Of a stretch of DNA of 32,000 nt, positions 7,789 through 31,980 are shown in pieces. Position 1 is the stretch's first letter. Each line of letters opens with the position of its first letter. The notes beneath the pieces are model-generated. The model saw nothing but the letters and a program-made list of their open reading frames with translations, ran no database searches and was not told the origin of the DNA. The translations under genes and the position numbers were made by a program. The stretch comes from Sedimentisphaera cyanobacteriorum (GTDB lineage Bacteria; Planctomycetota; Phycisphaerae; Sedimentisphaerales; Sedimentisphaeraceae). The stretch is taken from contig NZ_CP019633.1 of NCBI RefSeq assembly GCF_001997385.1, positions 2,130,001 to 2,162,000 of the forward strand. The letters run 5' to 3'.

Positions 7789-9201
7789 TTAGTACATATG
7801 GTTTAAGTCTCTCGAGGCTTCCAGAGCCTCCATCGTATCTATTGGAGCGCCCGGGTCATTCTCCTCTGCCATCCACTTATCAAGCCTGTCGCTGAGCCTT
7901 TGCTTAATTGTAGCGTATTTGGGGTCTTCTGCAAGGTTTTTCAGTTCGTACGGGTCTTCAGCGGTGTTGTAGAGCTGTTCTGCGGGCCGGCGGGTGTATC
8001 TCTCCACAAGCTCGTACATATCTTCATTATTGAAACAGTTAGACACCCACGAATGCCAGTAATCCATATTGCCCATCAGGTGCTTTTCAATGTATATTCT
8101 GTCGGGGCTTAGATTCCGAATGTATCTGTACTGCCCGTCAAAGACTGTCCTGATAGGATAAGGAGGCCCTTCCGGTACGTTGTTGTGAATCCCGTACACA
8201 TAATCGCGGTGTTTATCGGTATTGCCTTTTATCACCTCAAGAAAGCTGCTGCCGTCAAACTTAAACTGATTCGGATTTGCGCCGCCCAGATCGAGTATGG
8301 TAGGCAGGAAATCACAGTACTGCACCATAGCATCTGTCCGCTTGCCTGCCGGAGTAACTCCCGGCCAGCGGGCAATGAGTCCTGTATGCACTCCGGTATC
8401 CCAGTTTGTCCATTTGTTCCCCGGGAACTGCGAGCCCTGCTCGGAAGTAAAGAGCACAAGGGTATTCTCTGCCTTGCCGGTGTCTTCAAGGGCTTGAAGA
8501 ACATCTCCCACCTGCGAATCCATATATGTTATTTCCGCGAGATACTTGCCGAAATTCGTACGTGTTTTCGGTGTGTCTGCAAGGTTTGGCGGGAGCTTTA
8601 TCTCGTTATTCGGATACTGGCTCGCATCGCCCATAACCCACGGAACGTGAGGCTCAACAAGGGCTACCGTAAGATAGAACGGGGCAGAATCATCTTCCAT
8701 AAAACGCTTGATATACTTGGTATCGTGAGGGTTGGTGGGGTTTCTAACGCAGTTTTGGTCGAAGCCGTCGAGGAATTCAAACGGGAAGGCAGTTTCCGGC
8801 CTGATATGCCTTTTGCCTGCAAGACCCGCACGATAGCCGAGTTTGTCGAGATAGTGCGGAGCTGTTTTTATATCCGGCCTGCAAAAAGAATGATTCCAGC
8901 TCGCCCCATTGCTTATCGGATAAAGCCCGCTTTGAAGCTCAGACCGGCACGGAACGCACATCGCCTCTGAGAGATAGGCTTTGTTAAACACAAGCCCCTG
9001 GCTTGCAAGATTGTTGATATTAGGCGTTAGAGCATTTTGCCCGCCGTAAATGGGCAGATCGTTGTAGGTGCAGTCGTCGGCCATAATCAAAAGCACATTC
9101 GGGCGAGAATTATCCTGCGAAGCCGCTTTGCTGAGCGTCCCTCCCGCCGCAGCGGCGACAGCAGAGCTCAGGGCGTACTTTAGAAAATTTCTTCGTTTCA
9201 T
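7789..9201 (-). CDS. Cys-type sulfatase (arylsulfatase family) with a Tat-type signal peptide
   Basis: 470 aa. N-terminus is MKRRNFLKYALSSAVAAAAGG, followed by NVLLIMADDCTYND. The formylglycine motif is C-V-P-C-R within AMCVPCRSELQSG. Confidence 0.9.
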   Translation of the reverse strand: MKRRNFLKYALSSAVAAAAGGTLSKAASQDNSRPNVLLIMADDCTYNDLPIYGGQNALTPNINNLASQGLVFNKAYLSEAMCVPCRSELQSGLYPISNGASWNHSFCRPDIKTAPHYLDKLGYRAGLAGKRHIRPETAFPFEFLDGFDQNCVRNPTNPHDTKYIKRFMEDDSAPFYLTVALVEPHVPWVMGDASQYPNNEIKLPPNLADTPKTRTNFGKYLAEITYMDSQVGDVLQALEDTGKAENTLVLFTSEQGSQFPGNKWTNWDTGVHTGLIARWPGVTPAGKRTDAMVQYCDFLPTILDLGGANPNQFKFDGSSFLEVIKGNTDKHRDYVYGIHNNVPEGPPYPIRTVFDGQYRYIRNLSPDRIYIEKHLMGNMDYWHSWVSNCFNNEDMYELVERYTRRPAEQLYNTAEDPYELKNLAEDPKYATIKQRLSDRLDKWMAEENDPGAPIDTMEALEASRDLNHMY

Positions 9202-9223
9202 TTTTTTTTCGAACCTCTCTAAG

Positions 9224-10624
9224 TTATTGGTTTTTGTGTTTTCTTACATATTTCCACTGACGCTTCTTTGCGTTAAGCTCTGTTTCTATGCCTTTATCGC
9301 CCTGCTGAGCCATCCATTCATCGAGTTTTGCCTTGAGGCGTTTGAAAGTGTCTTCATAGCCCGGGTTGTCTGCAAGGTTGTTGATATTAGCAGGGTCTGC
9401 GACTACATCGTAAAGCTCGAATTCAGGGCGATGCTGATATTTATGGGTAAAGTGCCTGGCGTGCCTGTCGCCCTTCTGGGCAAGCTCCATCATAGACTTA
9501 AACTCAGGATAAGGCCTTTCTGTGAGCATATTCTGGAATTCGTTATCCGGCATCAGGTTCCAAATAAGACGGTAGCGTTTATCTCTCACTGAACGGATCG
9601 GATAAGGCTCTTTACTGTAGTAAATGCCTCTGGTTGTCTGGAGACCGAATGTATATTTCTTGTGCTTGTCAGTTTTGCCTGTGAGAAGATTCAGCATACT
9701 CCTTCCATCGAGAACTTCAGGCACATTCCCGCCCGCTGCTTCAATGAAGGTAGGCGTTACATCCACATATTCCACGATTGCATCGCTCTCGCTGCCAGGC
9801 TTAACCTTCCCTGGCCAGCGGACAATCATAATCGAACCGAGCCCGTCTTCATAGCATGTCCATTTGGCAAACGGAAGAGAATTTCCCTGCTCCGAGACAA
9901 CCATTACCATCGTATTATCTGAGAGCTTGTGTTTATCGAGCAGATCGAGAATATGTCCCACCTGATCATCGTAGTATGTTATCTCAGCGAGATATTTAAC
10001 CCACCTTTTACGCATAATCGGCGTATCGGGCAGATATGGAGGCAACACAATCTTATCCGGGTCGTACTGAGAAGGGTCGCCTTTGTTCCAAGGCGTATGC
10101 GGCTCATTAGAGCACGCAAACAGGCAGAAAGGAGTGTCCTTTTCTGTGCACTCAGAAAACATTTTATCGACAGCTTTCATATCAGGATTGTGCTTCTTCC
10201 CGCTGTACTCAAACGGAAAAACGCTTTCGGGCTGTATGTGCCGCTTGCCCGAGAGGGCAACCCTGTAGCCGAGGGGTTTTAGGTAATGAACTATGCTCTT
10301 TGTCCCCTCCTTTGCGCAGGTGTGATTCGGATATGCCCCGCTCTTGACCGGATACAGTCCTGTATAGATGTTGTGCCTTGTGGGCGAGCACATCGGGGCG
10401 GCCTGAAAGCAGCTGTTCATCTTCATTCCCTGCTTTGCGAGTCTGTCTATATTGGGGGTGTGGGCATCGCCGCCGTAGCAGCCTATATCACGAAACGTGC
10501 AGTCGTCTGCCATAATGAAAACGAAATTCGGCTTCTCTGAATGCCCTGCTGCCTCAAGCAAACTTCCAGCTCCAAGACTGAAAGCGGCTGCCGAGGCGTA
10601 TTTCACAAAATCCCTTCGTTTCAT
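9224..10624 (-). CDS. Cys-type sulfatase with Tat signal, tandem paralog A. Start placed at the internal MKRRDF rather than the ORF-track start at 10660.
   Basis: The listed ORF begins MEKCKTKQEQIK-MKRRDFVKY. The paralog upstream starts MRRRDFVKY, and its stop at 10627 would be overlapped by the longer start. AGGAA lies 9 nt upstream of the 10624 ATG. The FGly motif is C-S-P-T-R in PMCSPTRHN. Confidence 0.88.
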   Translation of the reverse strand: MKRRDFVKYASAAAFSLGAGSLLEAAGHSEKPNFVFIMADDCTFRDIGCYGGDAHTPNIDRLAKQGMKMNSCFQAAPMCSPTRHNIYTGLYPVKSGAYPNHTCAKEGTKSIVHYLKPLGYRVALSGKRHIQPESVFPFEYSGKKHNPDMKAVDKMFSECTEKDTPFCLFACSNEPHTPWNKGDPSQYDPDKIVLPPYLPDTPIMRKRWVKYLAEITYYDDQVGHILDLLDKHKLSDNTMVMVVSEQGNSLPFAKWTCYEDGLGSIMIVRWPGKVKPGSESDAIVEYVDVTPTFIEAAGGNVPEVLDGRSMLNLLTGKTDKHKKYTFGLQTTRGIYYSKEPYPIRSVRDKRYRLIWNLMPDNEFQNMLTERPYPEFKSMMELAQKGDRHARHFTHKYQHRPEFELYDVVADPANINNLADNPGYEDTFKRLKAKLDEWMAQQGDKGIETELNAKKRQWKYVRKHKNQ

Positions 10625-10626
10625 TT

Positions 10627-12024
10627 TTATTTGTTCCTGTTTTGTTTTACATTTTTCCATTTGCGTTTATCTGCATTGAGCTCGGTCTCTATGCCTTTAT
10701 CGCCCTGCTGAGCCATCCACTCATCAAGCCTTGCCTTGAGGCGTTTGAAAGTGTCTTCATAGCCCGGGTTGTCTGCAAGGTTGTTGATGTTTGCAGGGTC
10801 TGCTTTAACATCATAAAGCTCAAACTCAGGACGGTGCTGATATTTATGGGTAAAGTGCTTTGCGTGCCTGTCGCCATTTTCTGCAAGCTTCAGCATAGAC
10901 TTAAACTCTTTAGACCTCTCAGTTGCAGCATTTTCGAATTTGTTATCAGGCATAAGATTCCAGATAAGCCGGTACCGCTCATCCCTAACAGACCGGATTG
11001 GGTAGGGCTGTTTGCTGAAATGGATTCCGTTAGTTGTCTGGATGCCGAAAGTATATCTCTTGTGTTTGTCTGTTTTGCCTGTGAGAAGATTCACCATACT
11101 CCTGCCTTCAATCACATCGGGAACTTTTCCTCCCGCAGCTTCGATGAAGGTAGGCGTTACATCCACGTATTCCACGATTGCATTGCTCTCGCTGCCCGGC
11201 TTAACCTTCCCGGGCCAGCGGACAATCATAATTGAGCCCAGCCCGTCTTCATAGCATGTCCACTTGGCAAACGGAAGGGCATTGCCCTGCTCTGAGACAA
11301 CCATCACAATAGTATTTTCTGCGAGGTTGTGCTTCTCGAGCAGATCGAGAATCTGCCCCACCTGCTTATCAAAGTATGTTACTTCTGCGAGGTATTTGGT
11401 AAGAGATTCACGAACAACAGGCGTATCCGGTATATAAGAACGCAGCTTCAAATCCTCCGAATCATACTTTGAAGGATCGCCTTTGTTCCACGGCGTATGA
11501 GGCTCATTTGAACACGCAAACAGACAGAACGGACTGCCGTTTTCGTTTGAATCGTGGAAAAGCTCGTCTATTACCTTCATATCGGGGTTGTTGTTTTTTC
11601 TGCTGTATTCAAACGGAAAAACGCTTTTGGGGTGTATGTGCCGCTTGCCGGAAAGTGCAACCCTGTAGCCCAGAGGCCTTAAATAATGAACAATGCTCTT
11701 TGTGCCATCTTTTGCGCAGGTGTGGTTCGGATGTGCCCCGCTCTTAACCGGATACAGACCGGTATAGATGTTGTGCCTTGTAGGCGAGCACATCGGGGCG
11801 GCCTGAAAGCAGTTGTTCATCTTCATTCCCTGCGTTGCGAGCTTGTCTATGTTGGGCGTATGAGCCTGCCCGCCGTAGCAGCCGATATCACGGAATGTGC
11901 AGTCGTCTGCCATAATGAAAACGAAATTCGGCTTCTCTGAATGCCCTGCTGCCTCCAGCAAACTTCCAGCTCCGAGGCTGAAAGCGGCTGCTGAAGCGTA
12001 TTTTACAAAGTCTCTTCGTCTCAT
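10627..12024 (-). CDS. Cys-type sulfatase with Tat signal, tandem paralog B
   Basis: 465 aa. N-terminus is MRRRDFVKYASAAAFSLGAGSLLEAAGHSEKPNFVFIMADDCT and the FGly motif is PMCSPTRHN. It aligns collinearly with paralog A along its whole length. Confidence 0.9.
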   Translation of the reverse strand: MRRRDFVKYASAAAFSLGAGSLLEAAGHSEKPNFVFIMADDCTFRDIGCYGGQAHTPNIDKLATQGMKMNNCFQAAPMCSPTRHNIYTGLYPVKSGAHPNHTCAKDGTKSIVHYLRPLGYRVALSGKRHIHPKSVFPFEYSRKNNNPDMKVIDELFHDSNENGSPFCLFACSNEPHTPWNKGDPSKYDSEDLKLRSYIPDTPVVRESLTKYLAEVTYFDKQVGQILDLLEKHNLAENTIVMVVSEQGNALPFAKWTCYEDGLGSIMIVRWPGKVKPGSESNAIVEYVDVTPTFIEAAGGKVPDVIEGRSMVNLLTGKTDKHKRYTFGIQTTNGIHFSKQPYPIRSVRDERYRLIWNLMPDNKFENAATERSKEFKSMLKLAENGDRHAKHFTHKYQHRPEFELYDVKADPANINNLADNPGYEDTFKRLKARLDEWMAQQGDKGIETELNADKRKWKNVKQNRNK

Positions 12025-12043
12025 TTAATCGCCTTTCTTATAT

Positions 12044-13663
12044 TTAGCGTTTTACTTTTCTGCCCGGCTTTGGAATGCAGTTTACTCTCTCTGCCCATTC
12101 ATACCACTTTTGTGAGAGCTCTTTAACCAGCTCAGGCTTCTTCTCTGCAAGATCGTTAAGCTCTGTTCTGTCTGCTTCAAGGTCGTAAAGCTCCCATTTG
12201 TTTTCGTCTTCCCAGAGCTTATGGCGAACCGCTTTCCACTTGCCCTTCCTCACGGCTGCATGATACTCGTGTTCGAAGAACATATATTTATGGCCTTCTC
12301 TTTTTCCCGTAATTATTGCCGGGACGAGGCTTATGCCGTCAGATTTGTGCACGTCATTGCCTTTGAATTTCTCGGGATATTTTGCTCCCGCTAGGTCGGT
12401 GCAGGTAGCCATAATATCAATCAGATAGCCTGTTTCGTGGGTTATTGTGCCTTTTGTTTTAGCTGTAGCTTTAGGCCAGTGGGCTATAAGAGGCGTTGCA
12501 ATTCCGCCTTCGTGAACATAATGCTTGTATCGCCTGAAGGGCGTATTCGAGGCATTAGCCCATGCACGGCCGTAAGAGATGCAGCCGTAGTATTTCGGAT
12601 TGTTTACCCTGTCCAGCGGGGCTCCGCCGAGCTCGCCGCCTTCTGCACAACCGCCGTTGTCGCTCATAAACAGAATAAGCGTATTGTCCAGCTTGCCCTG
12701 CTTCTTGAGCGAGTCAACGAGCTTGCCTACGTTGTAGTCCATTGAATGCACCTGAGCGGCATAAACCGCCATGCGGTAGTCCATTTCGTCTTTCTTTTTC
12801 TCGCTGAGCGAATCCCAAGGCCTTGCGTCCCTCGGAGCCATTTCCCAGTCTTTCAAGAGCCCCATCTCAATCTGACGCTTGTTTCTTTCCTCGCGAAGCT
12901 TATCCCAGCCCTTCATATACTTCCCGCGGAATTTCTCCACATCTTCCTTTTTCGCATGCAGCGGCCAGTGAGGGGCGGTGTAGGCCAGATACAGGAAGAA
13001 AGGCTCCTGATCTTTCTGCTCTTTAATGAATTTTATCGCATTATCTGTGAATGCATCGGTGGTGTAATAGTTGGGGTCGTTTATTTCTATTTGTTCATTA
13101 TCCCGTGTGATACCCCTCGGATGTTCGGGGCGGAAAAAGTTTGAAGCTCCGGATAATATGCCGTAGAATCTGTCGAAACCTCGCTGGAGAGGCCAGAGAT
13201 GCCTTTCGGACATCCCAAGATGCCATTTGCCCGCCATATATGTATGATAGCCGGCGGTTTTCAGGACTTCTGCAATGGTAACATTGTTCTTATTCAAAAA
13301 TCCGCGATAGCCTACCGCTCCTTTGTCGTGCTTTCTTGTTCCGGGAGGGTTTGTCATATGCCCGATTCCGGTTTGATGCGGATGAAGGCCGGTCATTAGG
13401 CTTGCACGCGTTGGGCAGCATCTTGCTGTATTGTAGAATTGGCTGAAACGAACTCCGTTTTGGGCGAGTTTGTCGAGATTGGGGGTGTCGATTTCGCCGC
13501 CGTAGCAGCCTATATCTGAATACCCCATATCGTCAACGAGCACAACAACTATATTAGGCCTGTTTGCGGGAGCGGCCATTCCGTAGCTCCCCGCTGAGGC
13601 AGCAATAACGCCTGCACCTGCTGCCTTGAGGAAATTTCTTCTGCTTAAAACCTTATTGTCCAT
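12044..13663 (-). CDS. Cys-type arylsulfatase with Tat signal (larger, distinct subfamily)
   Basis: 539 aa with the motifs SRRNFLKAAGAGVIAASAG and NIVVVLVDDMGYSD. The canonical motif C-C-P-T-R-ASLMTG is present, along with GKWHLG. Confidence 0.92.
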   Translation of the reverse strand: MDNKVLSRRNFLKAAGAGVIAASAGSYGMAAPANRPNIVVVLVDDMGYSDIGCYGGEIDTPNLDKLAQNGVRFSQFYNTARCCPTRASLMTGLHPHQTGIGHMTNPPGTRKHDKGAVGYRGFLNKNNVTIAEVLKTAGYHTYMAGKWHLGMSERHLWPLQRGFDRFYGILSGASNFFRPEHPRGITRDNEQIEINDPNYYTTDAFTDNAIKFIKEQKDQEPFFLYLAYTAPHWPLHAKKEDVEKFRGKYMKGWDKLREERNKRQIEMGLLKDWEMAPRDARPWDSLSEKKKDEMDYRMAVYAAQVHSMDYNVGKLVDSLKKQGKLDNTLILFMSDNGGCAEGGELGGAPLDRVNNPKYYGCISYGRAWANASNTPFRRYKHYVHEGGIATPLIAHWPKATAKTKGTITHETGYLIDIMATCTDLAGAKYPEKFKGNDVHKSDGISLVPAIITGKREGHKYMFFEHEYHAAVRKGKWKAVRHKLWEDENKWELYDLEADRTELNDLAEKKPELVKELSQKWYEWAERVNCIPKPGRKVKR

Positions 13664-19423: not shown

Positions 19424-20218
19424 GTGAAAGATTGGAATATGAATAGATACCTTGAGCTAAGCATTGAATATGCGAATCAAAGGTCTTACCTTGATGATTT
19501 GTTTTCTGTTTATCCTACTATTCCTGAAGGTATCAGAGATATAGACCAGCAGGCTTGGGGCAAGGTAGAAGCCGCATTCAATGAGGGCAATAATTACGAA
19601 TTGATTAGACGCCTTCTTGAATTTGATTTATTCCCAATAAAGGACAGTTATGTAGCGTACCTGCGGCGAGATAAAAGCGCCTTGGAAAGAAACCCTAAAA
19701 CAACAAACAGATTGGCTGGCCGGCTTTATGAGATGGGGTTGGATTTGATTTATCAGAAATGCAGCGAGGCAAAAGAAACTAACCGCCAGATAGGGCCTAT
19801 GTTTCGAAAATGGGCGGCAAGCAAATCTTTAGGTCTCATGCCCTGTTCTTTGGAGGAATTTGTCTCCAATAATGAAGATGCTGTTCTTAAAGGCAGTGAT
19901 GTACATTTGATGCGATTCGCAAAAGAACATTTAGGATATAATCACAATAAAGGGCTTGACTTAGTTGCAAGATTTAATGGTAAATATGTAATCGGAGAAG
20001 CAAAATTCCTTACAGATTTCGGCGGACACCAAAGTTCACAGTTCAGAGATGCTCTGGCAACGCTGAATGCTGAGGTTGATGCGGTTGCTGTAGCGGTATT
20101 GGATGGCGTATTGTACATCCCGGGAAAAAATAAAATGTACACAGAACTAACTGAAATTTATGCTGAAAAGAATATAATGAGTGCATTGCTGCTTAGAGAA
20201 TTCTTGTACAGCTTATAA
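19424..20218 (+). CDS. Uncharacterised protein, candidate type II restriction endonuclease (PD-(D/E)XK-like) paired with the downstream methyltransferase. Alternative ATG start at 19439.
   Basis: 264 aa with no family I can name from sequence. The segment GLDLVARFNGKYVIGEAKF fits a D...E-x-K nuclease motif. The stop lies 7 nt before the methyltransferase start. The region is AT-rich relative to its flanks. Confidence 0.45.
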   Translation: MKDWNMNRYLELSIEYANQRSYLDDLFSVYPTIPEGIRDIDQQAWGKVEAAFNEGNNYELIRRLLEFDLFPIKDSYVAYLRRDKSALERNPKTTNRLAGRLYEMGLDLIYQKCSEAKETNRQIGPMFRKWAASKSLGLMPCSLEEFVSNNEDAVLKGSDVHLMRFAKEHLGYNHNKGLDLVARFNGKYVIGEAKFLTDFGGHQSSQFRDALATLNAEVDAVAVAVLDGVLYIPGKNKMYTELTEIYAEKNIMSALLLREFLYSL

Positions 20219-20225
20219 GGTTGAA

Positions 20226-21281
20226 ATGAAAAATCTTTTGATAAAAGGCGAAAATCTGGAAGCTTTGGAGCTTCTGATAAAAGAAAGAGGGCTAGAAGGC
20301 AGTATAGACTTAGTTTATATAGACCCTCCCTTTGCAACTGGAACGGATTTTAAGGTTTCTTTGAATCGCAGCTCAACTGTAAGTTCATCCAGAACAGGCA
20401 GTCTTGCATATTCAGACAAAGTGAAGGGAAGCGAGTTTATAGAATTCCTGAGAAAAAGGATGCTCCTTCTAAAAGAGCTGCTATCAGAGAGAGGGTCTAT
20501 ATACCTTCATACTGATTGCAAGATTGGTCATTATGTTAAGATAATGATGGACGAGGTTTTTGGGGTTGAGAATTTCAGAAATGATATAACTCGAATAAAA
20601 TGTAATCCCAAAAATTTCAACCGTACTGGATTCAGTAATATAAAGGATATGATACTTTTTTATTCTAAAGGAAAAAATCCAATCTGGAACGAACCCCGTG
20701 AAGATTATTCTGAGAAAGACAGGGAAAAGTTGTTTCCTAAAAATGATTCGAACGGCAGGCGATATACTACAGTGCCGATCCACGCACCCGGAGAAACGAA
20801 AAACGGCAGGTCTTCGCAGGAATTCAAGGGAATAAAGCCGCCAGCAGGAAGGCATTGGCGGGTGGATGTGGAAACTCTGGAAAGCTGGGATAAACAGGGG
20901 CTGCTGGAATGGTCTTCCAGCGGCAACCCGAGAAAAATAATATATGCAGACGAAAAAGAAGGCAAGAGAGTTCAGGATATATGGGAATTCAAGGACCCCC
21001 AATACCCTACTTATCCAACTGAAAAAAACTCTAAAATGCTGGAGATGATAATTAAAACATCTTCCATAGAAGCGAGCACGGTTTTAGATTGTTTCTGCGG
21101 GTCTGGAAGTACGCTCAGAGCTGCAGAAAGACTCAACAGAAGCTGGATTGGAATAGACAGCTCTGCTCAGGCAATAGAAACATCGCAGAAAAATATTAGT
21201 AAAGACTTTTCTGCAAATGCTCTTTTCGATTCCTGCAGCGGCTATGAAATGTTAGATATTTCAGAACAGACAATGGTTTAA
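20226..21281 (+). CDS. Beta-class N6_N4 DNA methyltransferase, probably N6-adenine. Start moved to MKNLLIKG.
   Basis: Motif IV (SIDLVYIDPPFATG) lies near the N-terminus and motif I (LDCFCGSGSTLRAAERL) near the C-terminus, which is the beta permutation. YPTEKNSKMLEMII is FxTxKP-like. AAGG lies upstream of the ATG at 20226. Confidence 0.85.
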   Translation: MKNLLIKGENLEALELLIKERGLEGSIDLVYIDPPFATGTDFKVSLNRSSTVSSSRTGSLAYSDKVKGSEFIEFLRKRMLLLKELLSERGSIYLHTDCKIGHYVKIMMDEVFGVENFRNDITRIKCNPKNFNRTGFSNIKDMILFYSKGKNPIWNEPREDYSEKDREKLFPKNDSNGRRYTTVPIHAPGETKNGRSSQEFKGIKPPAGRHWRVDVETLESWDKQGLLEWSSSGNPRKIIYADEKEGKRVQDIWEFKDPQYPTYPTEKNSKMLEMIIKTSSIEASTVLDCFCGSGSTLRAAERLNRSWIGIDSSAQAIETSQKNISKDFSANALFDSCSGYEMLDISEQTMV

Positions 21282-23943: not shown

Positions 23944-25374
23944 ATGGCACGCACAACAAAAACTAAATCGTGCAGCTCTTCCCGAAAAAAAGACGCCGGC
24001 AAAACCATCAGGGGTTATAAAGAGGCGATGGATTATATCTTTTCTCATACCGACTATGAGAAACAGCGTCTGCTGAGATATAATATTACGACCTTCGATT
24101 TGACCCGTATGTACAGGCTGCTGAAAGAGATGAAAAACCCTGAGAAAGGGCAAAATTTCATCCACATAGCCGGCTCAAAGGGCAAAGGTTCTACATCCAC
24201 CATGCTTGCAAGAATGCTTGAAGCAGGCGGGTACAAGGTGGGGCTGTACACCTCGCCGCACATAACTTCAATGCATGAAAGGATTTCGGTAAACAATAAA
24301 CATATAACAGAACGGCAGATGACTGCCCTAGTTCGTGAGATTAAGCCTGCAGTGGACAAGCTCGCAAAAGAGAATATTCAGCCTACATTTTTCGAGCTGC
24401 TCACGGCGATGGCTTTTGTTCATTTCAAGAACCAGAAAGCAGACTACGTTGTTTTAGAAACAGGCCTCGGCGGAAGGCTCGACAGCACAAACGTGGTTCA
24501 GCCCCTGATTACTGCTATAACGCAAATCAGCATAGACCATCAGCGTCAGCTGGGCTACAAAATCGAACAGATTGCCAAAGAGAAGGCCGGAATAATCAAA
24601 GAAGGCGTTCCAGTGGTAACGATAGATCAGGATGAGAACGCTCTTGAGGTAATCAAGGCTGATTCTGAGGCCAAAAACTCCCCGCTCTGGATTACCGGGG
24701 TGAATGTGGACTTCTCGAGCAGATTCGAATCCAGCAGAGAAGACGGGCCTCATACCAGAATCTGCGTGCAGTCTGAGACGAGCAAATTCGAGCATCTTAA
24801 AGTTCCGCTGCCGGGAGATCATCAGGCTCTCAACTGCGGGCTTGCTCTGACAATCATAGATCAGCTCAAAAATTTGGGCTGCGAAATCGAAAACGAGGAT
24901 ATCGTAAAGGGGCTTGAAAACGTGCATATGCCCGGCCGGATGGAGGTTGTGTTCAACGAACCGACGGTTATAGTTGATGCAGCTCACAACGCTGCCAGCC
25001 TCAGGGCTCTTATAGCCACTATCGGACAGCATATACCATACGATTCGCTTATCTTTATCTTCGGCTGCAATGCCGATAAGGATATACACGGCATGCTAGA
25101 CCAGCTCCAGTACGGGGCGGACAAGGTGATTTTCACGAGAAGCTCCTCGCCCAGGGCAATAAGCCCTGATGAACTTGCAGAGGAATACAACGAGCTTACC
25201 GGCAGGATGTGCCAGACCTCCCTCTCGCTCGGCGATGCTCTCAAAATTGCCGGAAGCGCCGTTACAAGAGGCGATGTAATCTGCATATCAGGCAGCGTTT
25301 ATCTCGTTGGCGATGCAATCAAACGGTTCAACAGAATCAAGGAAGCTGCAAGAGCTAATGCTGCTCAGCAGTAG
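23944..25374 (+). CDS. folC: Bifunctional folylpolyglutamate synthase / dihydrofolate synthase
   Basis: 476 aa. Contains the Mur-ligase P-loop HIAGSKGKGSTS plus YTSPH, LETGLGGRLDSTNV and DAAHNAAS. The N-terminus carries an extra basic segment of about 20 aa. Confidence 0.92.
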   Translation: MARTTKTKSCSSSRKKDAGKTIRGYKEAMDYIFSHTDYEKQRLLRYNITTFDLTRMYRLLKEMKNPEKGQNFIHIAGSKGKGSTSTMLARMLEAGGYKVGLYTSPHITSMHERISVNNKHITERQMTALVREIKPAVDKLAKENIQPTFFELLTAMAFVHFKNQKADYVVLETGLGGRLDSTNVVQPLITAITQISIDHQRQLGYKIEQIAKEKAGIIKEGVPVVTIDQDENALEVIKADSEAKNSPLWITGVNVDFSSRFESSREDGPHTRICVQSETSKFEHLKVPLPGDHQALNCGLALTIIDQLKNLGCEIENEDIVKGLENVHMPGRMEVVFNEPTVIVDAAHNAASLRALIATIGQHIPYDSLIFIFGCNADKDIHGMLDQLQYGADKVIFTRSSSPRAISPDELAEEYNELTGRMCQTSLSLGDALKIAGSAVTRGDVICISGSVYLVGDAIKRFNRIKEAARANAAQQ

Positions 25375-25396
25375 TTTTTGATAACTGAAGCTTAAA

Positions 25397-25431
25397 AGCC
25401 CGAAGAAGGATTAACTTCTCCGGGCTTTTTT
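25397..25431 (+). terminator. Rho-independent terminator of folC
   Basis: Stem AGCCCGAAGAAG (25397-25408) pairs with CTTCTCCGGGCT (25415-25426) with one mismatch, around the 6-nt loop GATTAA. A T-run follows to 25431. Confidence 0.7.
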
Positions 25432-25492
25432 AGTCGCCCCTGAAAAAGTTTAAAATTTTCCTTAAATTCTTTCCTGATAATGGTTTATATGA

Positions 25493-25520
25493 TTGAAAAG
25501 CTTTCGAGATATGGTATAAT
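25493..25520 (+). promoter_or_regulatory. Strong sigma70-like promoter inside the IS left end (TTGAAA, 16 nt spacer, TGgTATAAT)
   Basis: TTGAAA is at 25493-25498. A consensus TATAAT at 25515-25520 is preceded by TGG. It lies 54 nt upstream of the transposase ATG at 25575. Confidence 0.5.
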
Positions 25521-25574
25521 ATTGCAAGTGTTTATCTTACATCTATCAAAACATTGCAATATTGGGACAAAATA

Positions 25575-26918
25575 ATGAAGGCAAAAAACAATAAAGCAGG
25601 CTTACTCTTTCAGCAGCCATTAAAACCTCTTGTAAATCCTGATCACTCTTTAGTCCAACTCTCAGAGGTTGTCAACTGGTCTCGCTTTGAAGAAAAGTTT
25701 GGCAGTTTATACAGTCCTGATTCAGGCAGGCCGGCCAAGCCGATTCGCCTGATGGTCGGCCTTCAGTATCTCAAGTACACTTTCAATCTCAGCGATGAAG
25801 CAATCGTTGCCGGCTGGGTTGAGAATCCTTACTGGCAGTATTTCTGCGGCGAAAGATACTTCCAGCACGAGCCTCCTATTGATCCAACCAGTATGACTAA
25901 GTGGCGTAATAAGGTAAAATCTGATGGTCTTGAAGAGCTGCTCGAAGAAACTATCAAAGCCGGCTTGAAGCTTAAGGTTATCAAAAAGAACGATTTCAAC
26001 AAGCTCGTTGCAGATACAACCGTTCAGCAGAAGAACATCACTTATCCGACCGACGCAAAACTCTGCCACAAACTGCGCATTAAGCTTGTAGATCTTGCAA
26101 AAGCATCAAAACTCCAACTTCGCCAAAGCTACGAAAGGGTTGGGAAAAGGGCGTATGTAATGCAGGGCAGGTATCGACGTGCAAGACAGTTCAAAAGAGC
26201 TAAAAAAGAAGTGAAGAAATTAAGGAACTACCTGCGGCGAATTACGAAAGAGGTCGAGCGGAATATAGCAGGCAATGAGCAGTTAAGAATAATTTTTGAT
26301 ACATTGCTTCAAGCCGCTAAGAAGCTTTTAGCCCAGACAAAGAAAAGCAAAAATAAACTCTACAGTATTCACGAACCTCACGTCTGCTGCATTGGGAAAG
26401 GCAAAAGCCACAAGAAATATGAGTTTGGAAATAAGGTTGGAATTGTAACTACTGCCAAGAATAATTTTATCGTAGGAGCGTTGGGCTTTGAAGGAAACCC
26501 TTATGATGGCCATACTCTTCGGGCTAATCTGAAGCAGACAATGAATTTAATCGGGAGAGAAAAGCTTGGAGATGTTTATGTTGATGGAGGATACAAGAAA
26601 CATGGCTGCGAAGATATTGGAAATGTTGAAATTGTAGAAAAGGGCTGGCGAAAAAAGAAACGAAGTATCAAGAGGTGGATTAAGAGAAGATCGAGCATAG
26701 AACCAACGATAGGCCACCTCAAAGAAGACAACAGGTTGGGAAGAAACTTCTTGAAAGGTGTAGAAGGGGACAAAATGAACGCCCTCGGCAGCGCTTTTGG
26801 GTACAATATGCGTAAACTTCTAAAGAAGTTTACTTTTGCCTATATTTTTATGCTTAAAATTATTGAATTTTACAGAAATTTGGCAATGAAAAGCAAATTA
26901 AAGACTCGATTAGCCTGA
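25575..26918 (+). CDS. IS5-family DDE transposase (N-terminal DUF772-type domain). ATG at 25575; the ORF track uses TTG at 25554.
   Basis: N-terminal motif is PAKPIRLMVGLQYLKYTFNLSDEAIVAGWVENPYWQYFCG. The DDE-region motifs are ADTTVQQKNITYPTDAKL, VYVDGGYKKHG and RRSSIEPTIGHLKEDNRLGRNFLKG. Confidence 0.9.
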   Translation: MKAKNNKAGLLFQQPLKPLVNPDHSLVQLSEVVNWSRFEEKFGSLYSPDSGRPAKPIRLMVGLQYLKYTFNLSDEAIVAGWVENPYWQYFCGERYFQHEPPIDPTSMTKWRNKVKSDGLEELLEETIKAGLKLKVIKKNDFNKLVADTTVQQKNITYPTDAKLCHKLRIKLVDLAKASKLQLRQSYERVGKRAYVMQGRYRRARQFKRAKKEVKKLRNYLRRITKEVERNIAGNEQLRIIFDTLLQAAKKLLAQTKKSKNKLYSIHEPHVCCIGKGKSHKKYEFGNKVGIVTTAKNNFIVGALGFEGNPYDGHTLRANLKQTMNLIGREKLGDVYVDGGYKKHGCEDIGNVEIVEKGWRKKKRSIKRWIKRRSSIEPTIGHLKEDNRLGRNFLKGVEGDKMNALGSAFGYNMRKLLKKFTFAYIFMLKIIEFYRNLAMKSKLKTRLA

Positions 26919-27049
26919 TATATTTTTTTAGTTTCCCCAAAATCATTGATTTTTCAGGAACGACTTTTTAGTTCAATCTCGCTTTTTCTGCTGCTCGCTG
27001 CGGGTTTAAATGCTCTTCTAATTTTCAGCATTCAAAGCAGATCTTTGCT

Positions 27050-27091
27050 GTACATAAAAACAAAAAGCCGCATCCATTCAAGATGCGGCTT
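27050..27091 (-). terminator. Rho-independent terminator of rplU
   Basis: A perfect 10-bp stem pairs AAGCCGCATC (27065-27074) with GATGCGGCTT (27082-27091) around a 7-nt loop. On the minus strand it is followed by TTTTGTTTTT, the complement of about 27054-27064. Confidence 0.7.
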
Positions 27092-27122
27092 GTATTCCTG
27101 CTTTGATTTTGGTTTGAAGCAT

Positions 27123-27476
27123 TTATGCTTCGATTGCATCCACCACTACCTGAAGGTATTTCTGGCGGTGTCCAACTCTCTTTCTGCTGTGCTTCCTTCT
27201 GCGGAAATAAGTTGGGTAAACCTTTTTGCCCTTGAATACCGCAGTTTTCTCGGCCTCTTCGCCGGTTTTCTTGTCGAAGTATTTTACTTTCGCAGTAACC
27301 TTCGCACCGTCGATATACGGTTTGCCGATTTTGATTTCCTGCCCGTCGCTTACGAAGAGCACTTTATCCATCTCAAGCACTTCCGCACCGTTTTCCAGGT
27401 CGGTAAGTTCGATGTTGATCACATCTCCCTGAGACACTTTATATTGTTTTCCGCCTTGTTCTACTATTGCGTACAT
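27123..27476 (-). CDS. rplU: 50S ribosomal protein L21
   Basis: 117 aa. N-terminus MYAIVEQGGKQYKVSQGDVINIE is the canonical L21 start. The C-terminus is basic (RRRKHSRKRVGHRQ). Confidence 0.93.
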   Translation of the reverse strand: MYAIVEQGGKQYKVSQGDVINIELTDLENGAEVLEMDKVLFVSDGQEIKIGKPYIDGAKVTAKVKYFDKKTGEEAEKTAVFKGKKVYPTYFRRRKHSRKRVGHRQKYLQVVVDAIEA

Positions 27477-27601
27477 ATCTTAAACCTTGATTACTGAATT
27501 AATAAAGGAAAGTGGGATTATACGAAAAAAATATTTTTGTAAAGCCTTATTTTGAGCCTGAGAGGGGATTTTTTCATTTTTTTTGGCTCTCGGGCAGATT
27601 T

Positions 27602-28540
27602 TCATTTATCCTGCCTGCTGAATGAGTCTCTCGGGTGCGCTTTTTTGTAAACGTCTTTGAGTCTTTTTGTGGTTAGATGCGTGTAAACCTGAGTGGCAGC
27701 GATGGATTTGTGCCCCAGAAGCTCCTGCACGCTCCGCAGGTCTGCATTGTGGTCTAAGAGGTGGGTTGCGTAGCTGTGGCGGAGGGTGTGAGGGGTTGCA
27801 GATTTGCTGAGCCCCGCCTTCAGCAGATACTTCTTGAGCATCTTTCTTATGCCTCCGTCCTGAAGGCGCCGGCCGAATCTGTTCAGGAAAACCGCCTCTT
27901 GGTCAAAAGCCCCGCCCTTTTCCCTGAAATGGTTCTCGGCGAGCTTGATATAATCTTCAACCGCTCTTTTCGCTCTCTCGCCCAGCGGGCAGAGCCTTTC
28001 TCGACTGCCCTTGCCGCGTACTTTGACAATTCTGCCCCCGCTTTTGAAGCTGCTTCTGCAAAGGCCTGTAAGCTCGCTTATCCTGAGCCCGCCTCCGTAG
28101 AGAACTTCCAGTATCGCCTTGTCTCTCGCTCCCAGCCACGTGCTGAGGTCCTGTTCGCTGAGCAGGTAGTCTATTTCCTTTTCCGTGAGGAAATTCGGGA
28201 GCTTGCCGTCTGGTTTTGGGGTTCTAAGGCCTGTTATCGGGTTGATGCTTATCTTACCGCTCTGGAGCAGATGCTTATAGAAGCTTCTCAGCGAGGAGAC
28301 CCGCCTTGCGGCAGATTTCTTGCCAAGCCCTTCAAGGCTGCAGCGGGTTAGGTATGCACGGATAATCTCAGGGCCGGCATCAAAAATCGAGCCAAACTCC
28401 TCCTCTGAGAGAAAATCAGCGAAATCTTTCAAATCGTTTCGGTACGAGCTTACTGTAAGCTCTGCGCTGCCCCGCTGGCAGCGGAGAAATTCGAGAAATT
28501 CGCTTACTGCCGCTTCGTTTTTTTCGCTATAATCGCTCAC
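27602..28540 (-). CDS. Tyrosine recombinase, XerC/XerD family
   Basis: 312 aa. The N-terminal SAM-like domain contains ARRVSSLRSFYKHL. The catalytic region is GGLRISEL...HTLRHSYATHLLDHNADLRSVQELLGHKSIAATQVYTHL. Confidence 0.88.
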   Translation of the reverse strand: MSDYSEKNEAAVSEFLEFLRCQRGSAELTVSSYRNDLKDFADFLSEEEFGSIFDAGPEIIRAYLTRCSLEGLGKKSAARRVSSLRSFYKHLLQSGKISINPITGLRTPKPDGKLPNFLTEKEIDYLLSEQDLSTWLGARDKAILEVLYGGGLRISELTGLCRSSFKSGGRIVKVRGKGSRERLCPLGERAKRAVEDYIKLAENHFREKGGAFDQEAVFLNRFGRRLQDGGIRKMLKKYLLKAGLSKSATPHTLRHSYATHLLDHNADLRSVQELLGHKSIAATQVYTHLTTKRLKDVYKKAHPRDSFSRQDK

Positions 28541-28565
28541 TGCCCGCTCCGTTTGCCGGCTGATA

Positions 28566-29561
28566 TCAGCCGAATGAATCGTAATAAATGTTCTGCCCGA
28601 TAACGCCCAGCTCTTTCAGAACGTCAATTGAGGCGTATATCATCCCCGGGCTTCCGCAGAGAAACGCCTCGCAAGAGCTCAGATCGCTGCACCTTTGTTT
28701 CAAGGCATCGGTTACAAGCCCTGTCTGCCCCTGCCAGCTCTTGCCCGGGTAATGTATCACAGGGACAAATTTGAAATTCGGGATTGTTTTTTCGAATTCC
28801 CTCATCTCATCAAGCATATAGATATCATCTTCAGTTTCTGCGCCGAAAAAGTATGTTGCAGGCCTTTTATCTTGGGTGTTTCTCATCTCGAAGAGAAGGT
28901 TGCGTATTGAGCTCATCCCCGAACCGCCCGCTATCATCACAGCAGGGCTGCTGCTTTTGGTAAGGCCGAAATCGCCCTCGGGCCCTTCAAATTCGATCAC
29001 TTCACCCACCTTCAGATGCTCAAAGAGGTATTTTGTGCAGAGGCCGGAGGGGGTTTGGCGGATTATCAGCTCGAATTGAGATTTATCTGACGGGTCTGAG
29101 GCGAGGGAGAAGGTTCTGGTTACGGCAGTTTCCGAGCATTCATACGCAGGGGCTGTAAGCAGGATATACTGCCCGGGGCGGTAGTCCAGAGTGCCTTCAT
29201 TCATCTCGAAGCGGAAAAGCCTTATGTCTCCGGTGAGCGGGGTGATCTGCCGGCAGACGGCTTCGAACGTGTTTACGCCCTCGAGATGTTCCTCAAGCTC
29301 CACGGAAATATCACTCTGCACCTCAACCTGACACGCCAGCCGCCGGCCGTCTTCCAGCCGGCCCTTGGACTGCTGCTTCTTTTCTGCGTCGGTAAGCTGG
29401 CCTGCGGCGTCCGTTTTCACGCTGCACTTCCCGCATACGCCCCTGCCGCCGCATACGCCAAGCTCTATCCCCCCAGAGGCAAGCACCTCGCGGAGATTTG
29501 CACCTGCTCCGCAGCGTATTATCTTCTCTCCATTGTTTACCTTTACACTGAATTCATCCAT
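28566..29561 (-). CDS. 2Fe-2S ferredoxin domain fused to an FAD/NAD(P)-binding FNR-like reductase (NqrF-like, no TM segment)
   Basis: 331 aa. Contains the cluster motif CGGRGVCGKCSV...C, the FAD motif RTFSLAS (RxYS type), and the NAD motif VMIAGGSGMSSI. Confidence 0.8.
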   Translation of the reverse strand: MDEFSVKVNNGEKIIRCGAGANLREVLASGGIELGVCGGRGVCGKCSVKTDAAGQLTDAEKKQQSKGRLEDGRRLACQVEVQSDISVELEEHLEGVNTFEAVCRQITPLTGDIRLFRFEMNEGTLDYRPGQYILLTAPAYECSETAVTRTFSLASDPSDKSQFELIIRQTPSGLCTKYLFEHLKVGEVIEFEGPEGDFGLTKSSSPAVMIAGGSGMSSIRNLLFEMRNTQDKRPATYFFGAETEDDIYMLDEMREFEKTIPNFKFVPVIHYPGKSWQGQTGLVTDALKQRCSDLSSCEAFLCGSPGMIYASIDVLKELGVIGQNIYYDSFG

Positions 29562-29710
29562 TTAGTCCGCCTCGCTGATTTTTTATGTTTCCCTTATTGC
29601 AAACAGCATATTATACATATATCACTCATTTTACAACTAATCAAACTTTCTGCTTGCATCATTTAAATGTTAGTTTAGATTTAATAATATCTGTATGAAG
29701 TGAGGCATTT

Positions 29711-30346
29711 ATGAACATATCTAATGCGAAAATATACCACATAACTCATATCAACAATTTAGATAATATTATAAGAAACAGAGCTGTTTATTCGGATGCC
29801 AGGCTCTCAAAAATGGACATTAACACTGAAGTTGTTGGCATGGAAAGTATTAAATACAGAAGATTACACGAAATTAAGGTTAAATGTTACCCCCATACAA
29901 CAGTAGGTCAATATGTACCGTTTAATTTTTGCCCCAGATCAATTATGCTTTACATCTTACATAAGAGTAACCACGAGAATATTAAATACAGTGGTGGGCA
30001 AGCACCAATTTTACACCTTCAGGCAGACTTTCATAATGCGGTAGAATGGGCTGAAAAAAATAATGTTAAATGGGCATACACAGATATAAATGCTTCAACT
30101 TTTTATGCCAATTTTTATAATAAGTTAAACAATATAAACGAAAATATTAACTGGCAGGCAGTTAATTCAAAACACTGGCAAGACAAGGAAATTAAAGAGC
30201 GAAAGCAAGCTGAATTTTTGTTCTATGATTTATTTCCCCTTGAACTCATTGAAAAAATAGGGGTATTCAGCAAAGAGCAAAAACTACTGGTTTCAAAAAA
30301 AGTAAATAATATTGATGTCTCAATTGAAACTAGCTGGTATTATTAG
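29711..30346 (+). CDS. darT: DarT, DUF4433 ssDNA thymidine ADP-ribosyltransferase toxin
   Basis: 211 aa with the motifs IYHITHINNLDNII, QYVPFNFCPRSIMLY and AYTDINAS, and the catalytic-Glu region RKQAEFLFYDLFPLELIEKIGV. GAGG Shine-Dalgarno lies 7 nt upstream. A macrodomain gene follows 12 nt downstream. Confidence 0.85.
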   Translation: MNISNAKIYHITHINNLDNIIRNRAVYSDARLSKMDINTEVVGMESIKYRRLHEIKVKCYPHTTVGQYVPFNFCPRSIMLYILHKSNHENIKYSGGQAPILHLQADFHNAVEWAEKNNVKWAYTDINASTFYANFYNKLNNINENINWQAVNSKHWQDKEIKERKQAEFLFYDLFPLELIEKIGVFSKEQKLLVSKKVNNIDVSIETSWYY

Positions 30347-30358
30347 CTTGAGGCTTAT

Positions 30359-31405
30359 ATGATAAAAACAACAAAAGGCGACATTCTAAAAGCAGATACT
30401 CAGGCCATTGTGAATACGGTTAATTGCGTAGGCGTTATGGGAAGAGGTATTGCGCTGCAATTTCGTAAAACCTTTCCTGAAAATTTCAAGAGCTATAAAT
30501 CTGCCTGCGAAAAAAATAAAATTAAACCGGGGAAAATGTTTACCTTCAGCCTAAACAGTTTTTCAAACCCAAAGTATATCATCAATTTTCCCACTAAAAG
30601 GCACTGGAAAGGCAAAAGCAGGCTTGAAGATATTGAGTCTGGCTTAAAAAGTCTGGCCTTAGAAGTTCGCCAGCTGAAGATTGGTTCTGTAGCTTTGCCT
30701 CCTTTAGGCTGCGGACTTGGGGGGCTTTCTTGGGCTGAGGTCAGACCTATGATAGAAAAAACTTTTTCCTCTTTACCGGAAGTTGAAGTTTTGCTATACG
30801 AGCCTGCCGGTGCTCCTCAAGCTAAAGCAATGGCCAAAAAAAGGAAATGCCCTGAGATGACAGCTGGCAGGGCTGCCCTTATTGGATTGATGGACAACTA
30901 CTTAAAAGGGTTTATTGATCCTTTTGTAAGCCTGCTTGAGATTCATAAGCTAATGTATTTTATGCAGTTTTCCGGTGAAAATCTCCGTCTCAGATACGCC
31001 AAGGGGAAATATGGGCCTTATGCTGAAAATCTTCGACATGTTCTCAATGAAATAGAGGGGTACTTTATAGAAGGTTATGCCGATGCTGGAGATAACCCAG
31101 ATAAGCAGATAGAGCTTATTCCAAATGCGGTAAAACAGGCTGAGAGCTTTCTCAAGGGGCACAAAAATACTCTTGCCCGTTTTGAGAAGGTTGTGGATTT
31201 AATCCAAGGATTTGAGACACCGTATGGAATGGAGCTTCTTTCAACTGTCCATTGGGCAGCAGAAAAAGAAAACGCCAAAAACATTGAGCAGGTGGTTGAG
31301 AAAACCTATGCTTGGAACGAGCGCAAGAAGATGTTCAAGAAAGAGCATATAAAATTGGCTTACGAAGTGCTTAAAGATAAAGGGTGGGTTGAGGGCTGCT
31401 GTTAA
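30359..31405 (+). CDS. darG: DarG, macrodomain ADP-ribosylglycohydrolase antitoxin with a C-terminal toxin-binding domain
   Basis: 348 aa. The N-terminal macrodomain is GDILKADTQAIVNTVNCVGVMGRGIALQFRKTFPENF...INFPTKRHWKGKSRLEDI...LPPLGCGLGGLSW. A second domain of about 190 aa follows. Confidence 0.85.
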   Translation: MIKTTKGDILKADTQAIVNTVNCVGVMGRGIALQFRKTFPENFKSYKSACEKNKIKPGKMFTFSLNSFSNPKYIINFPTKRHWKGKSRLEDIESGLKSLALEVRQLKIGSVALPPLGCGLGGLSWAEVRPMIEKTFSSLPEVEVLLYEPAGAPQAKAMAKKRKCPEMTAGRAALIGLMDNYLKGFIDPFVSLLEIHKLMYFMQFSGENLRLRYAKGKYGPYAENLRHVLNEIEGYFIEGYADAGDNPDKQIELIPNAVKQAESFLKGHKNTLARFEKVVDLIQGFETPYGMELLSTVHWAAEKENAKNIEQVVEKTYAWNERKKMFKKEHIKLAYEVLKDKGWVEGCC

Positions 31406-31497
31406 TCTGTTTTCGCAGAAAAAAATGATGAAATCGCTGAGCAGATTTATATAATCGGATTCTCAATATAAGGCAGAAAAAATTAAGAGGTATAGAA

Positions 31498-31980
31498 ATG
31501 GCGAAGGCCCACGTTTACAAACGCGACCACATAAACACAGATGAGATAATCCCCGCGAGATACTTAAACACAGACAGCCGCGAGGAGCTTGCCAAGCACT
31601 GCTTAGAGGATCTGGATCCGGAATTTATGCAGAAGGCCGGTGAGGGCGATGTTATCGTCGGCGGGCAGGACTTCGGCTGCGGATCGAGCAGGGAGCATGC
31701 TGTATGGGCAATTCAGAACGCTGATTTGGGCGCTGTAATAGCCGAATCGTTTGCGAGAATATTCTACCGCAACTGCATCAACTGCGGATTCTACCCGATA
31801 GAGCTGAAAAACGCCTCAGAGCATATAAACGACGGGGACGAGCTCAGCATATACTACGAAAACGGCAAAATATTCAACAAAACTCAGGGCAGTGAGATTG
31901 ATTTCAAGCCTCTGCCGGATTTTGCTCTGGAAATCGTTCGCGACGGCGGCCTCCTGAACCACATCAGCAAGAAAGTTTAG
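31498..31980 (+). CDS. leuD: 3-isopropylmalate (or homoaconitate) dehydratase small subunit, short type-2 form
   Basis: 160 aa with the motifs INTDEIIPARYL, VGGQDFGCGSSREHAVWAI and ESFARIFYRNCIN. Confidence 0.88.
   Translation: MAKAHVYKRDHINTDEIIPARYLNTDSREELAKHCLEDLDPEFMQKAGEGDVIVGGQDFGCGSSREHAVWAIQNADLGAVIAESFARIFYRNCINCGFYPIELKNASEHINDGDELSIYYENGKIFNKTQGSEIDFKPLPDFALEIVRDGGLLNHISKKV

Follow-up and report, generated by a model that had tools for sequence, protein, structure and literature searches.

We analysed a 32,000-nucleotide stretch of Sedimentisphaera cyanobacteriorum DNA (contig NZ_CP019633.1, positions 2,130,001 to 2,162,000; hereafter the window, numbered from its first nucleotide), which carries a two-gene DarT/DarG toxin-antitoxin module towards its right end. 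On the plus strand, darT occupies 29711-30346 as an intact open reading frame (ORF) of 211 amino acids (aa) with a TAG stop at 30344-30346. It is followed by darG at 30359-31405, an intact ORF of 348 aa that begins with an ATG at 30359. The spacer between them (plus strand, 30347-30358) is 12 nucleotides (nt) long. Both start codons lie 5 nt downstream of a GAGG Shine-Dalgarno sequence, located at 29702-29705 in the darT leader and at 30350-30353 within the spacer. A preliminary description of this DNA had reported two tightly spaced genes with a 12-nt gap and a GAGG element each, and the exact coordinates bear this out.

The arrangement on one strand, with a 12-nt gap and a Shine-Dalgarno sequence per gene, is the bicistronic darT-darG layout of DarTG2 systems, and the relatives are organised likewise. 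The layout of the spacer suggests coupled expression of the two genes. The darT leader and presumed promoter region span 29647-29710 on the plus strand; a sequence scan for a sigma-70-like promoter 5' of darT returned no match above chance.

Family assignment and fold

DarT matches Pfam PF14487 (DarT/DUF4433) at 3e-52 over the full model (positions 1-201), with 177.7 bits against a cut-off of 22.5. It also matches the NCBIfam equivalog NF048013 'toxin DarT' with 195.3 bits (curated cut-off 150) and the PADLOC DarT model at 1e-56. These matches are all far beyond chance and confirm the DUF4433/DarT identity that had been proposed for the first gene. Among solved structures, the protein matches DarT of Thermus sp. 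2.9 (7omv) at 3e-28 and DarT of Mycobacterium tuberculosis (7yk3_A) at 3e-14.

We built an AlphaFold2 model of DarT on 63 sequences (predicted local distance difference test score, pLDDT, 96.7; predicted template modelling score, pTM, 0.92) and compared its fold with known structures by the Foldseek template modelling (TM) score. The model scored 0.88 against Thermus 7omv, 0.82 against M. tuberculosis 7yk3_A and 0.62 against the DarT1 structure 8baq. The predicted ARTD fold is of the DarT2 type, with a far better fit to the DarT2 structures than to the guanine-specific DarT1 of Escherichia coli C7.

DarG consists of two domains. The N-terminal macrodomain (30359-30823, plus strand, aa 1-155), a putative ADP-ribosyl-thymidine glycohydrolase, matches Pfam Macro PF01661 at 8e-25 over aa 18-131 and aligns with the macrodomain structures 5m3i and 5m31 from M. 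tuberculosis and Thermus aquaticus at about 1e-49, with the NFPTK(K/R)HW motif in register. The C-terminal region (30857-31360, plus strand, aa 167-334) matches chain B of 7yk3, the M. tuberculosis DarT-DarG complex, at 6e-22 and is a DarT-binding domain by homology. At full length, DarG scores 465 bits against the NCBIfam equivalog NF048014 'antitoxin DarG' (cut-off 250; model positions 2-338 of 338) and matches the PADLOC DarG model at 3e-139.

The DarG motif NFPTKRHW, pointed out earlier, lies at aa 76-83 and contains K80 (codon 30596-30598), and the Macro match is significant, as had been expected. K80 is the catalytic lysine of DarG, a K80A mutant being inactive, and W83 is the thymine-stacking residue (PMC9967889, PMC11543638). 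Both residues, together with the glycine-rich loops, are invariant in 39 relatives. DarG thus has the features of a DarTG2 antitoxin, namely a TARG1-like macrodomain with K80 and a C-terminal match to the DarT-binding domain. The proposed DarT/DarG module passed every sequence and fold test for both proteins.

The DarG, reductase and LeuD proteins of the window are each 100% identical to S. cyanobacteriorum entries, and public annotation gives the product of 30359-31405 the name 'RNase III inhibitor', the label of the S. cyanobacteriorum entry, or 'O-acetyl-ADP-ribose deacetylase'. The NCBIfam and PADLOC models unambiguously name it DarG, and judged by these models the public label is wrong.

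DarTG systems fall into a DarTG2 class, with a macrodomain antitoxin and a thymidine-specific toxin, and a DarTG1 class, with a NADAR antitoxin and a guanine-specific toxin (PMC11543638). Because it combines a macrodomain antitoxin with a predicted DarT2-like fold, the window module is assigned to the DarTG2 class, and thymidine specificity would be expected from its homologues.

Catalytic residues of DarT

We mapped residues by HMMER alignment to Thermus DarT, numbered after PMC9967889, and took their roles from PMC9967889 and PMC11543638. Thermus H13, I14, T15, N19, R51, M78 and E160 correspond to H10, I11, T12, N16, R51, M79 and E168 in the window protein and are all conserved, so that the catalytic Glu (E168), the Arg (R51) and the NAD+-binding His (H10) are in place. 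The codons of R51 and E168 lie at 29861-29863 and 30212-30214. At the position of Thermus H119 the window protein has N127, and Asn is the majority residue of the family in this column (120 of 139). N72, at the position of Thermus Y71, departs from the family Tyr.

Conservation across the family is consistent with this assignment. R51, V69, P70, A128, E168, L170, W209 and Y210 do not vary among 51 aligned relatives, and the window DarT keeps all of them. In the 63-sequence alignment R51 is again invariant and E168 occurs in at least 90%; H10 is likewise kept in at least 90% of the aligned DarT sequences. The motifs named in the preliminary description are present as YHITH (aa 9-13), YVPF (aa 68-71) and KQAEFL (aa 165-170), and the conserved Glu of AEFL, proposed there as a check, is found in the alignment as E168. 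The longer motif written there as 'YVPF.F' holds for its YVPF part, while its wildcard conceals an Asn where the family has Tyr.

Composition and boundaries of the islet

The base composition of the two genes sets them apart from the rest of the window. GC content is 0.321 in darT and 0.419 in darG, and GC content at third codon positions (GC3) is 0.316 and 0.410. These values lie 3-8 standard deviations below those of 21 housekeeping ORFs in the window (GC 0.491 ± 0.022, GC3 0.55 ± 0.04); the flanking reductase gene has a GC of 0.533 and a GC3 of 0.617, and the flanking leuD 0.509 and 0.652. The AT-richness first noted from two hand-counted 60-nt lines (35% against 65% GC) is real at the level of whole genes, although milder than those lines had implied.

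Nucleotide homology to the sister species S. salicampi extends at 83.5% identity over 27062-29642 and ends some 65 nt short of the darT start codon. From 31417, 12 nt past the darG stop, the sequence is again homologous to S. salicampi, now to the leuD locus of that species (85%). The species-specific DNA is therefore delimited to about 29647-31416, a segment of about 1.77 kb (left edge ±5 nt) with only darT-darG inside and a GC content of 0.30-0.42, against 0.49-0.53 in the flanks. Absence from the orthologous S. salicampi site and atypical composition are both features of a horizontally acquired islet. The earlier proposal of horizontal insertion is upheld, since darTG is missing from the sister species at this locus and its composition is foreign rather than host-like.

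We found no flanking direct or inverted repeats above chance at the islet boundaries, no tRNA gene in the window and no dedicated integrase for the darTG islet. Scanning the entire window against Rfam gave no match.

The corresponding slot 5' of the reductase gene in S. salicampi holds other genes. An HNH nuclease (PADLOC HNH, 3e-48) occupies it in both strains (CP021023.1, L002, 6508-9816; second strain, L001, 8971-9816), and in the complete genome only, it is accompanied by a PtuA-like AAA ATPase (2e-28) and by a 301-aa protein that matches no family. This is a Septu-like pair with no recognisable PtuB. The slot cargo is followed by argG and lpxB. In S. salicampi the reductase and leuD flanks do not adjoin each other, so there is no simple empty site that joins the reductase gene directly to leuD. 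Two exact-pattern searches for the conserved sequence of the left flank in metagenome contigs produced 0 hits. The synteny comparison suggested in the preliminary description thus succeeded in part: darTG is absent from the S. salicampi slot, but that slot is filled by other defence-type genes instead of being empty. We conclude that darTG occupies a slot of variable content at a break in synteny, where the sister species holds different defence-type cargo.

Relatives and genetic vehicles

DarT has relatives in 1,409 clusters (50% identity) at E ≤ 1e-3, the best of them 50% identical, and DarG has more than 8,000 relatives at E ≤ 1e-10, with a best non-self match of 70% identity. The nearest darTG relative lies on the metagenome contig SRR7048219_61503 (L085, 1-13047), with DarG about 69-70% and DarT 55% identical. 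On this contig, darTG separates hsdS from hsdR in a type I restriction-modification operon in which GmrSD and a KAP-family NTPase are also encoded; the operon is followed by a SIR2-HerA pair and a DDE transposase. A Phycisphaerales metagenome-assembled genome also has a darT-darG pair, with a DarG 65% identical, so that the novelty of host lineage once claimed for the window module falls away.

Full-length relatives of DarG occur on 102 plasmids from many phyla, including plasmids of 7-8 kb. In IMG/VR, darT stands directly upstream of darG in 19 of 25 loci. Matches to DarG are found in 372 phage records; only 3 of these matches extend over 80% or more of DarG, and most of the others are confined to the macrodomain. 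Orphan antitoxins are a published form of anti-DarTG counter-defence (PMC11825919, PMC11481870), and the phage matches are consistent with this.

In each of the 19 pairs from viral contigs, as in the reference pair, DarT is the faster-diverging of the two proteins. Since the same asymmetry appears in every pair examined, the difference between 55% for DarT and 69% for DarG is normal for the family, and we rejected faster divergence of DarT as a sign of decay.

Interpretation of the module

The analysis itself shows the family of both proteins, their domain architecture and catalytic residues, the layout of the operon, its foreign composition and its absence from the sister species at this site. 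We read the locus, with a probability of roughly 85%, as a live, intact, horizontally acquired DarTG2 operon of S. cyanobacteriorum, its activity being assigned by homology. The alternatives considered below overlap with this reading in part, and the confidence given to each does not sum to one.

Enzymatic activity, thymidine specificity, toxicity with rescue and an anti-phage role would all be expected by analogy with characterised systems. DarT, using NAD+, would attach ADP-ribose to N3 of thymidine within a short single-stranded DNA motif and thereby block replication. The DarG macrodomain, through K80, would remove the adduct, and the C-terminal domain would bind and sequester DarT. Phage infection may tip the balance towards DarT, in which case replicating phage DNA would become ADP-ribosylated and the infection would abort. 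Homologous DarTG systems have demonstrated anti-phage activity (cited in PMC11543638, PMC11481870 and PMC11825919). The context of the window module is that of a defence system as well, with matching PADLOC models, defence-type genes in the sister-species slot and a nearest relative inside a defence island.

Several points weigh against this reading. In place of the Tyr that belongs to the H-Y-E motif of ARTD enzymes, DarT has Asn72 (in VPFNF) in the Thermus Y71 column. In the Thermus enzyme Y71 stacks on the nicotinamide and helps to polarise NAD+ (PMC9967889, PMC11543638), and Asn72 could have weakened the DarT toxin. The islet shows no promoter, terminator or flanking repeat above chance and has no integrase of its own. 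Finally, DarTG of M. tuberculosis has non-defence roles (PMC12170906).

The module might instead be a selfish addiction element, of no benefit to the host, that merely stabilises a rearrangement-prone junction and persists because loss of darG with stable DarT kills the cell. Such an element would fit a segment that holds two toxin-antitoxin genes only and sits exactly at the reductase/leuD synteny breakpoint, and also the frequent occurrence of relatives on plasmids, the 7-8 kb ones included. The anti-phage activity demonstrated for homologues (PMC11543638, PMC11481870, PMC11825919), the defence-type genes in the sister-species slot and the embedding of the closest relative in a defence island speak against it, and addiction and defence are not mutually exclusive. 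As a full account of the locus we consider addiction rather unlikely.

Among 144 sequences (143 representatives and the window protein), column 72 of DarT has Tyr in 129 and Asn in 7, the window protein included; Tyr accounts for about 90% of the representatives and Asn for about 5% of DarT clusters. Asn recurs in 6 further clusters at 50% identity, and R51 and E168 are kept in every one. The nearest neighbours of every Asn-bearing cluster carry Tyr, which indicates that the Tyr-to-Asn change is recurrent and independent. Both of the closest DarTs with known gene context read VPFYFC, so Asn72 is derived in the window lineage; its codon, AAT (29924-29926), is one nucleotide away from TAT. A search for residues covarying with Y72N (7 Asn against 129 Tyr) gave a best p of 0.004 before correction; once multiple testing is allowed for, no residue is significant. 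DarT1 enzymes have Ser63 at the Tyr position, where it is mechanistically dispensable (PMC11543638).

From these comparisons we infer that Asn72 is a tolerated variant that may lower activity, rather than the sign of a dead toxin. We keep the module within DarTG2 because this is a single deviating residue in an otherwise complete motif set, and one that recurs in nature. A more ambitious proposal is that H-N-E in place of H-Y-E represents a recurrent, independently selected tuning of DarT2, which might for example lower basal toxicity or alter NAD+ handling or target preference. We regard it as speculative and quite unlikely; if it were true, Asn72 would define a functional DarT2 sub-variant, with the planctomycete copy as one example. 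The recurrent Tyr-to-Asn change at the nicotinamide-stacking position is a cheap mutagenesis target for studies of DarT catalysis or for attenuated DarT2 editors.

Asn72 is also the starting point for a reading in which the module is attenuated or decaying, with a DarT crippled by the Y-to-N change and DarG left as a free-standing ADP-ribosyl hydrolase. The change fits this reading in being a derived, one-nucleotide substitution (AAT from TAT, against VPFYFC in the nearest DarTs), as does a DarT that is both more diverged than DarG from the nearest relative (55% against 69%) and more AT-rich. However, the DarT ORF is full length, covers the whole Pfam model and keeps all other catalytic and invariant positions. 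Asn occurs independently in 6 other clusters that keep R51 and E168, which suggests that DarT tolerates it; DarT1 is functional with a dispensable Ser in this place; and the faster divergence of DarT is seen in all 19 viral-contig pairs and the reference pair. We consider decay decidedly improbable. Rather than an immune system, the module might be an endogenous regulator of replication and growth, as proposed for M. tuberculosis, whose DarTG2 system modifies the origin region by ADP-ribosylation and has control over growth (PMC12170906). This is very improbable here, because darTG is species-specific, compositionally foreign and absent from the S. salicampi locus, which makes a core regulatory role unlikely.

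Flanking genes and leuD

To the left of the islet, the order folC-rplU-xerC-reductase is common to the window and two S. salicampi genomes. The reductase gene (28566-29561, minus strand) encodes a Fer2-FAD-NAD(P) oxidoreductase resembling NqrF (Pfam Fer2, FAD_binding_6 and NAD_binding_1) and is a host gene. It is divergent from darT, as originally described, and its S. salicampi orthologue is 87% identical, with conserved xerC-rplU-folC neighbours. Next to it, a XerC/D-like recombinase gene lies at 27602-28540 (minus strand), followed by rplU (27123-27476, minus strand) and folC (23944-25374). The XerC/D-like gene was considered as an integrase of the islet and rejected, being conserved beside the reductase gene and rplU in relatives without darTG.

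To the right, the host leuD, a small-subunit gene, and its promoter region span 31417-31980 on the plus strand, with the ORF at 31498-31980. LeuD scores 188 bits against TIGR02087, and LeuD of S. salicampi is 93% identical. The 81 nt 5' of leuD are conserved between both Sedimentisphaera species and include a promoter-like TATAAT box (31450-31455).

Neither leuA nor leuC is found upstream of leuD anywhere in the window, whereas a leuA-leuC-leuD-leuB cluster is present in 49 of 49 other Phycisphaerae and Planctomycetota loci with upstream DNA (L006-L055). In S. salicampi, no leuC is found in the 1.1 kb 5' of leuD, up to the contig end, and ilvB, ilvN and ilvC lie downstream. On the sequences compared, the leuC-less leuD is a genus trait older than the gain of darTG. 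The lack of leuC had been put forward as evidence for insertion; the observation itself is real in the window, but it is not evidence for a darTG insertion because it is common to S. salicampi and predates that gain.

The S. salicampi contig end 5' of leuD (NHPQ01000017.1, 1-1060; L087, leuD locus 1-1628) is rich in repeats, with tandem units carrying GTGGGAGAAA...CCCACAC palindromes and repeated CCGCCACAGGCGGAC hairpins. In several leu clusters of other Planctomycetota, inserted DNA of 2-5 kb separates leuC from leuD or leuD from leuB (L031, 3456-7197; L033, 9949-14794; L055, 10481-15261; also L043, L044, L038 and L053). The ORFs of about 500 aa in these insertions are possibly extra leuA/cimA-like genes.

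Other features of the window

An IS5 transposase ORF (25554-26918; NF033578, 4e-151; GC 0.416) lies within 25375-27122, between folC and rplU. The gap at this place in S. salicampi is about 146 nt, and nucleotide homology to that species skips 25362-27061 around the transposase.

The region 19424-21281, between a Tex-like gene and argH, encodes a type II restriction enzyme resembling Tsp45I (Pfam 3e-114; PADLOC REase_II 1e-115) and a type II DNA methyltransferase (PADLOC 4e-165) whose start is overlapped by the restriction gene. Both genes have a low GC content (0.40), and they are probably a second defence system that was gained horizontally. On the minus strand, 7789-13663 holds four ORFs in a row, each of 465-539 aa, and both of those tested are sulfatases, which fits the sulfated-polysaccharide lifestyle of the group.

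Comparison with known systems

The closest characterised counterparts are the DarTG2 systems of T. aquaticus and Thermus sp. 2.9, M. tuberculosis and enteropathogenic E. coli (EPEC), which have the same darT-then-darG order and tight spacing. They share with the window module the DarT fold (TM 0.82-0.88) and equivalents of the His, of R51 and of E160, and, in DarG, K80 and W83 within NFPTK(K/R)HW together with the C-terminal DarT-binding domain. The window DarT is, however, only about 32% identical to Thermus DarT and about 24% to M. tuberculosis DarT. It differs from the Thermus enzyme in having Asn at both the Y71 and the H119 positions, and its host is a planctomycete.

The DarTG1 system of E. 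coli C7 shares an ART-superfamily toxin and the toxin-antitoxin logic, and its toxin also lacks the Tyr (Ser63; PMC11543638). The window module differs from it in having a macrodomain instead of NADAR, and its DarT matches the DarT1 fold much less well (8baq; TM 0.62, 15% identity). The phage orphan DarG-like macrodomains are homologous to the window macrodomain, at 40-53% identity over aa 1-155, but nearly all lack the C-terminal domain and an adjacent darT, whereas the window DarG is full length and paired.

The darTG of SRR7048219_61503, at 214 + 348 aa, shares the architecture of the window module. That copy lies in a multi-system defence island and keeps the Tyr (VPFYFC), while the two genes of the window stand alone as an islet. 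The window module is an ordinary, intact copy of a well-described family and adds little beyond annotation, placing a cultured Phycisphaerae host in the DarTG2 range. It goes beyond the ordinary only in its H-N-E variant and in its position in a variable defence slot at a rearrangement junction, a small site 5' of the reductase gene at which Sedimentisphaera genomes swap defence-type cargo.

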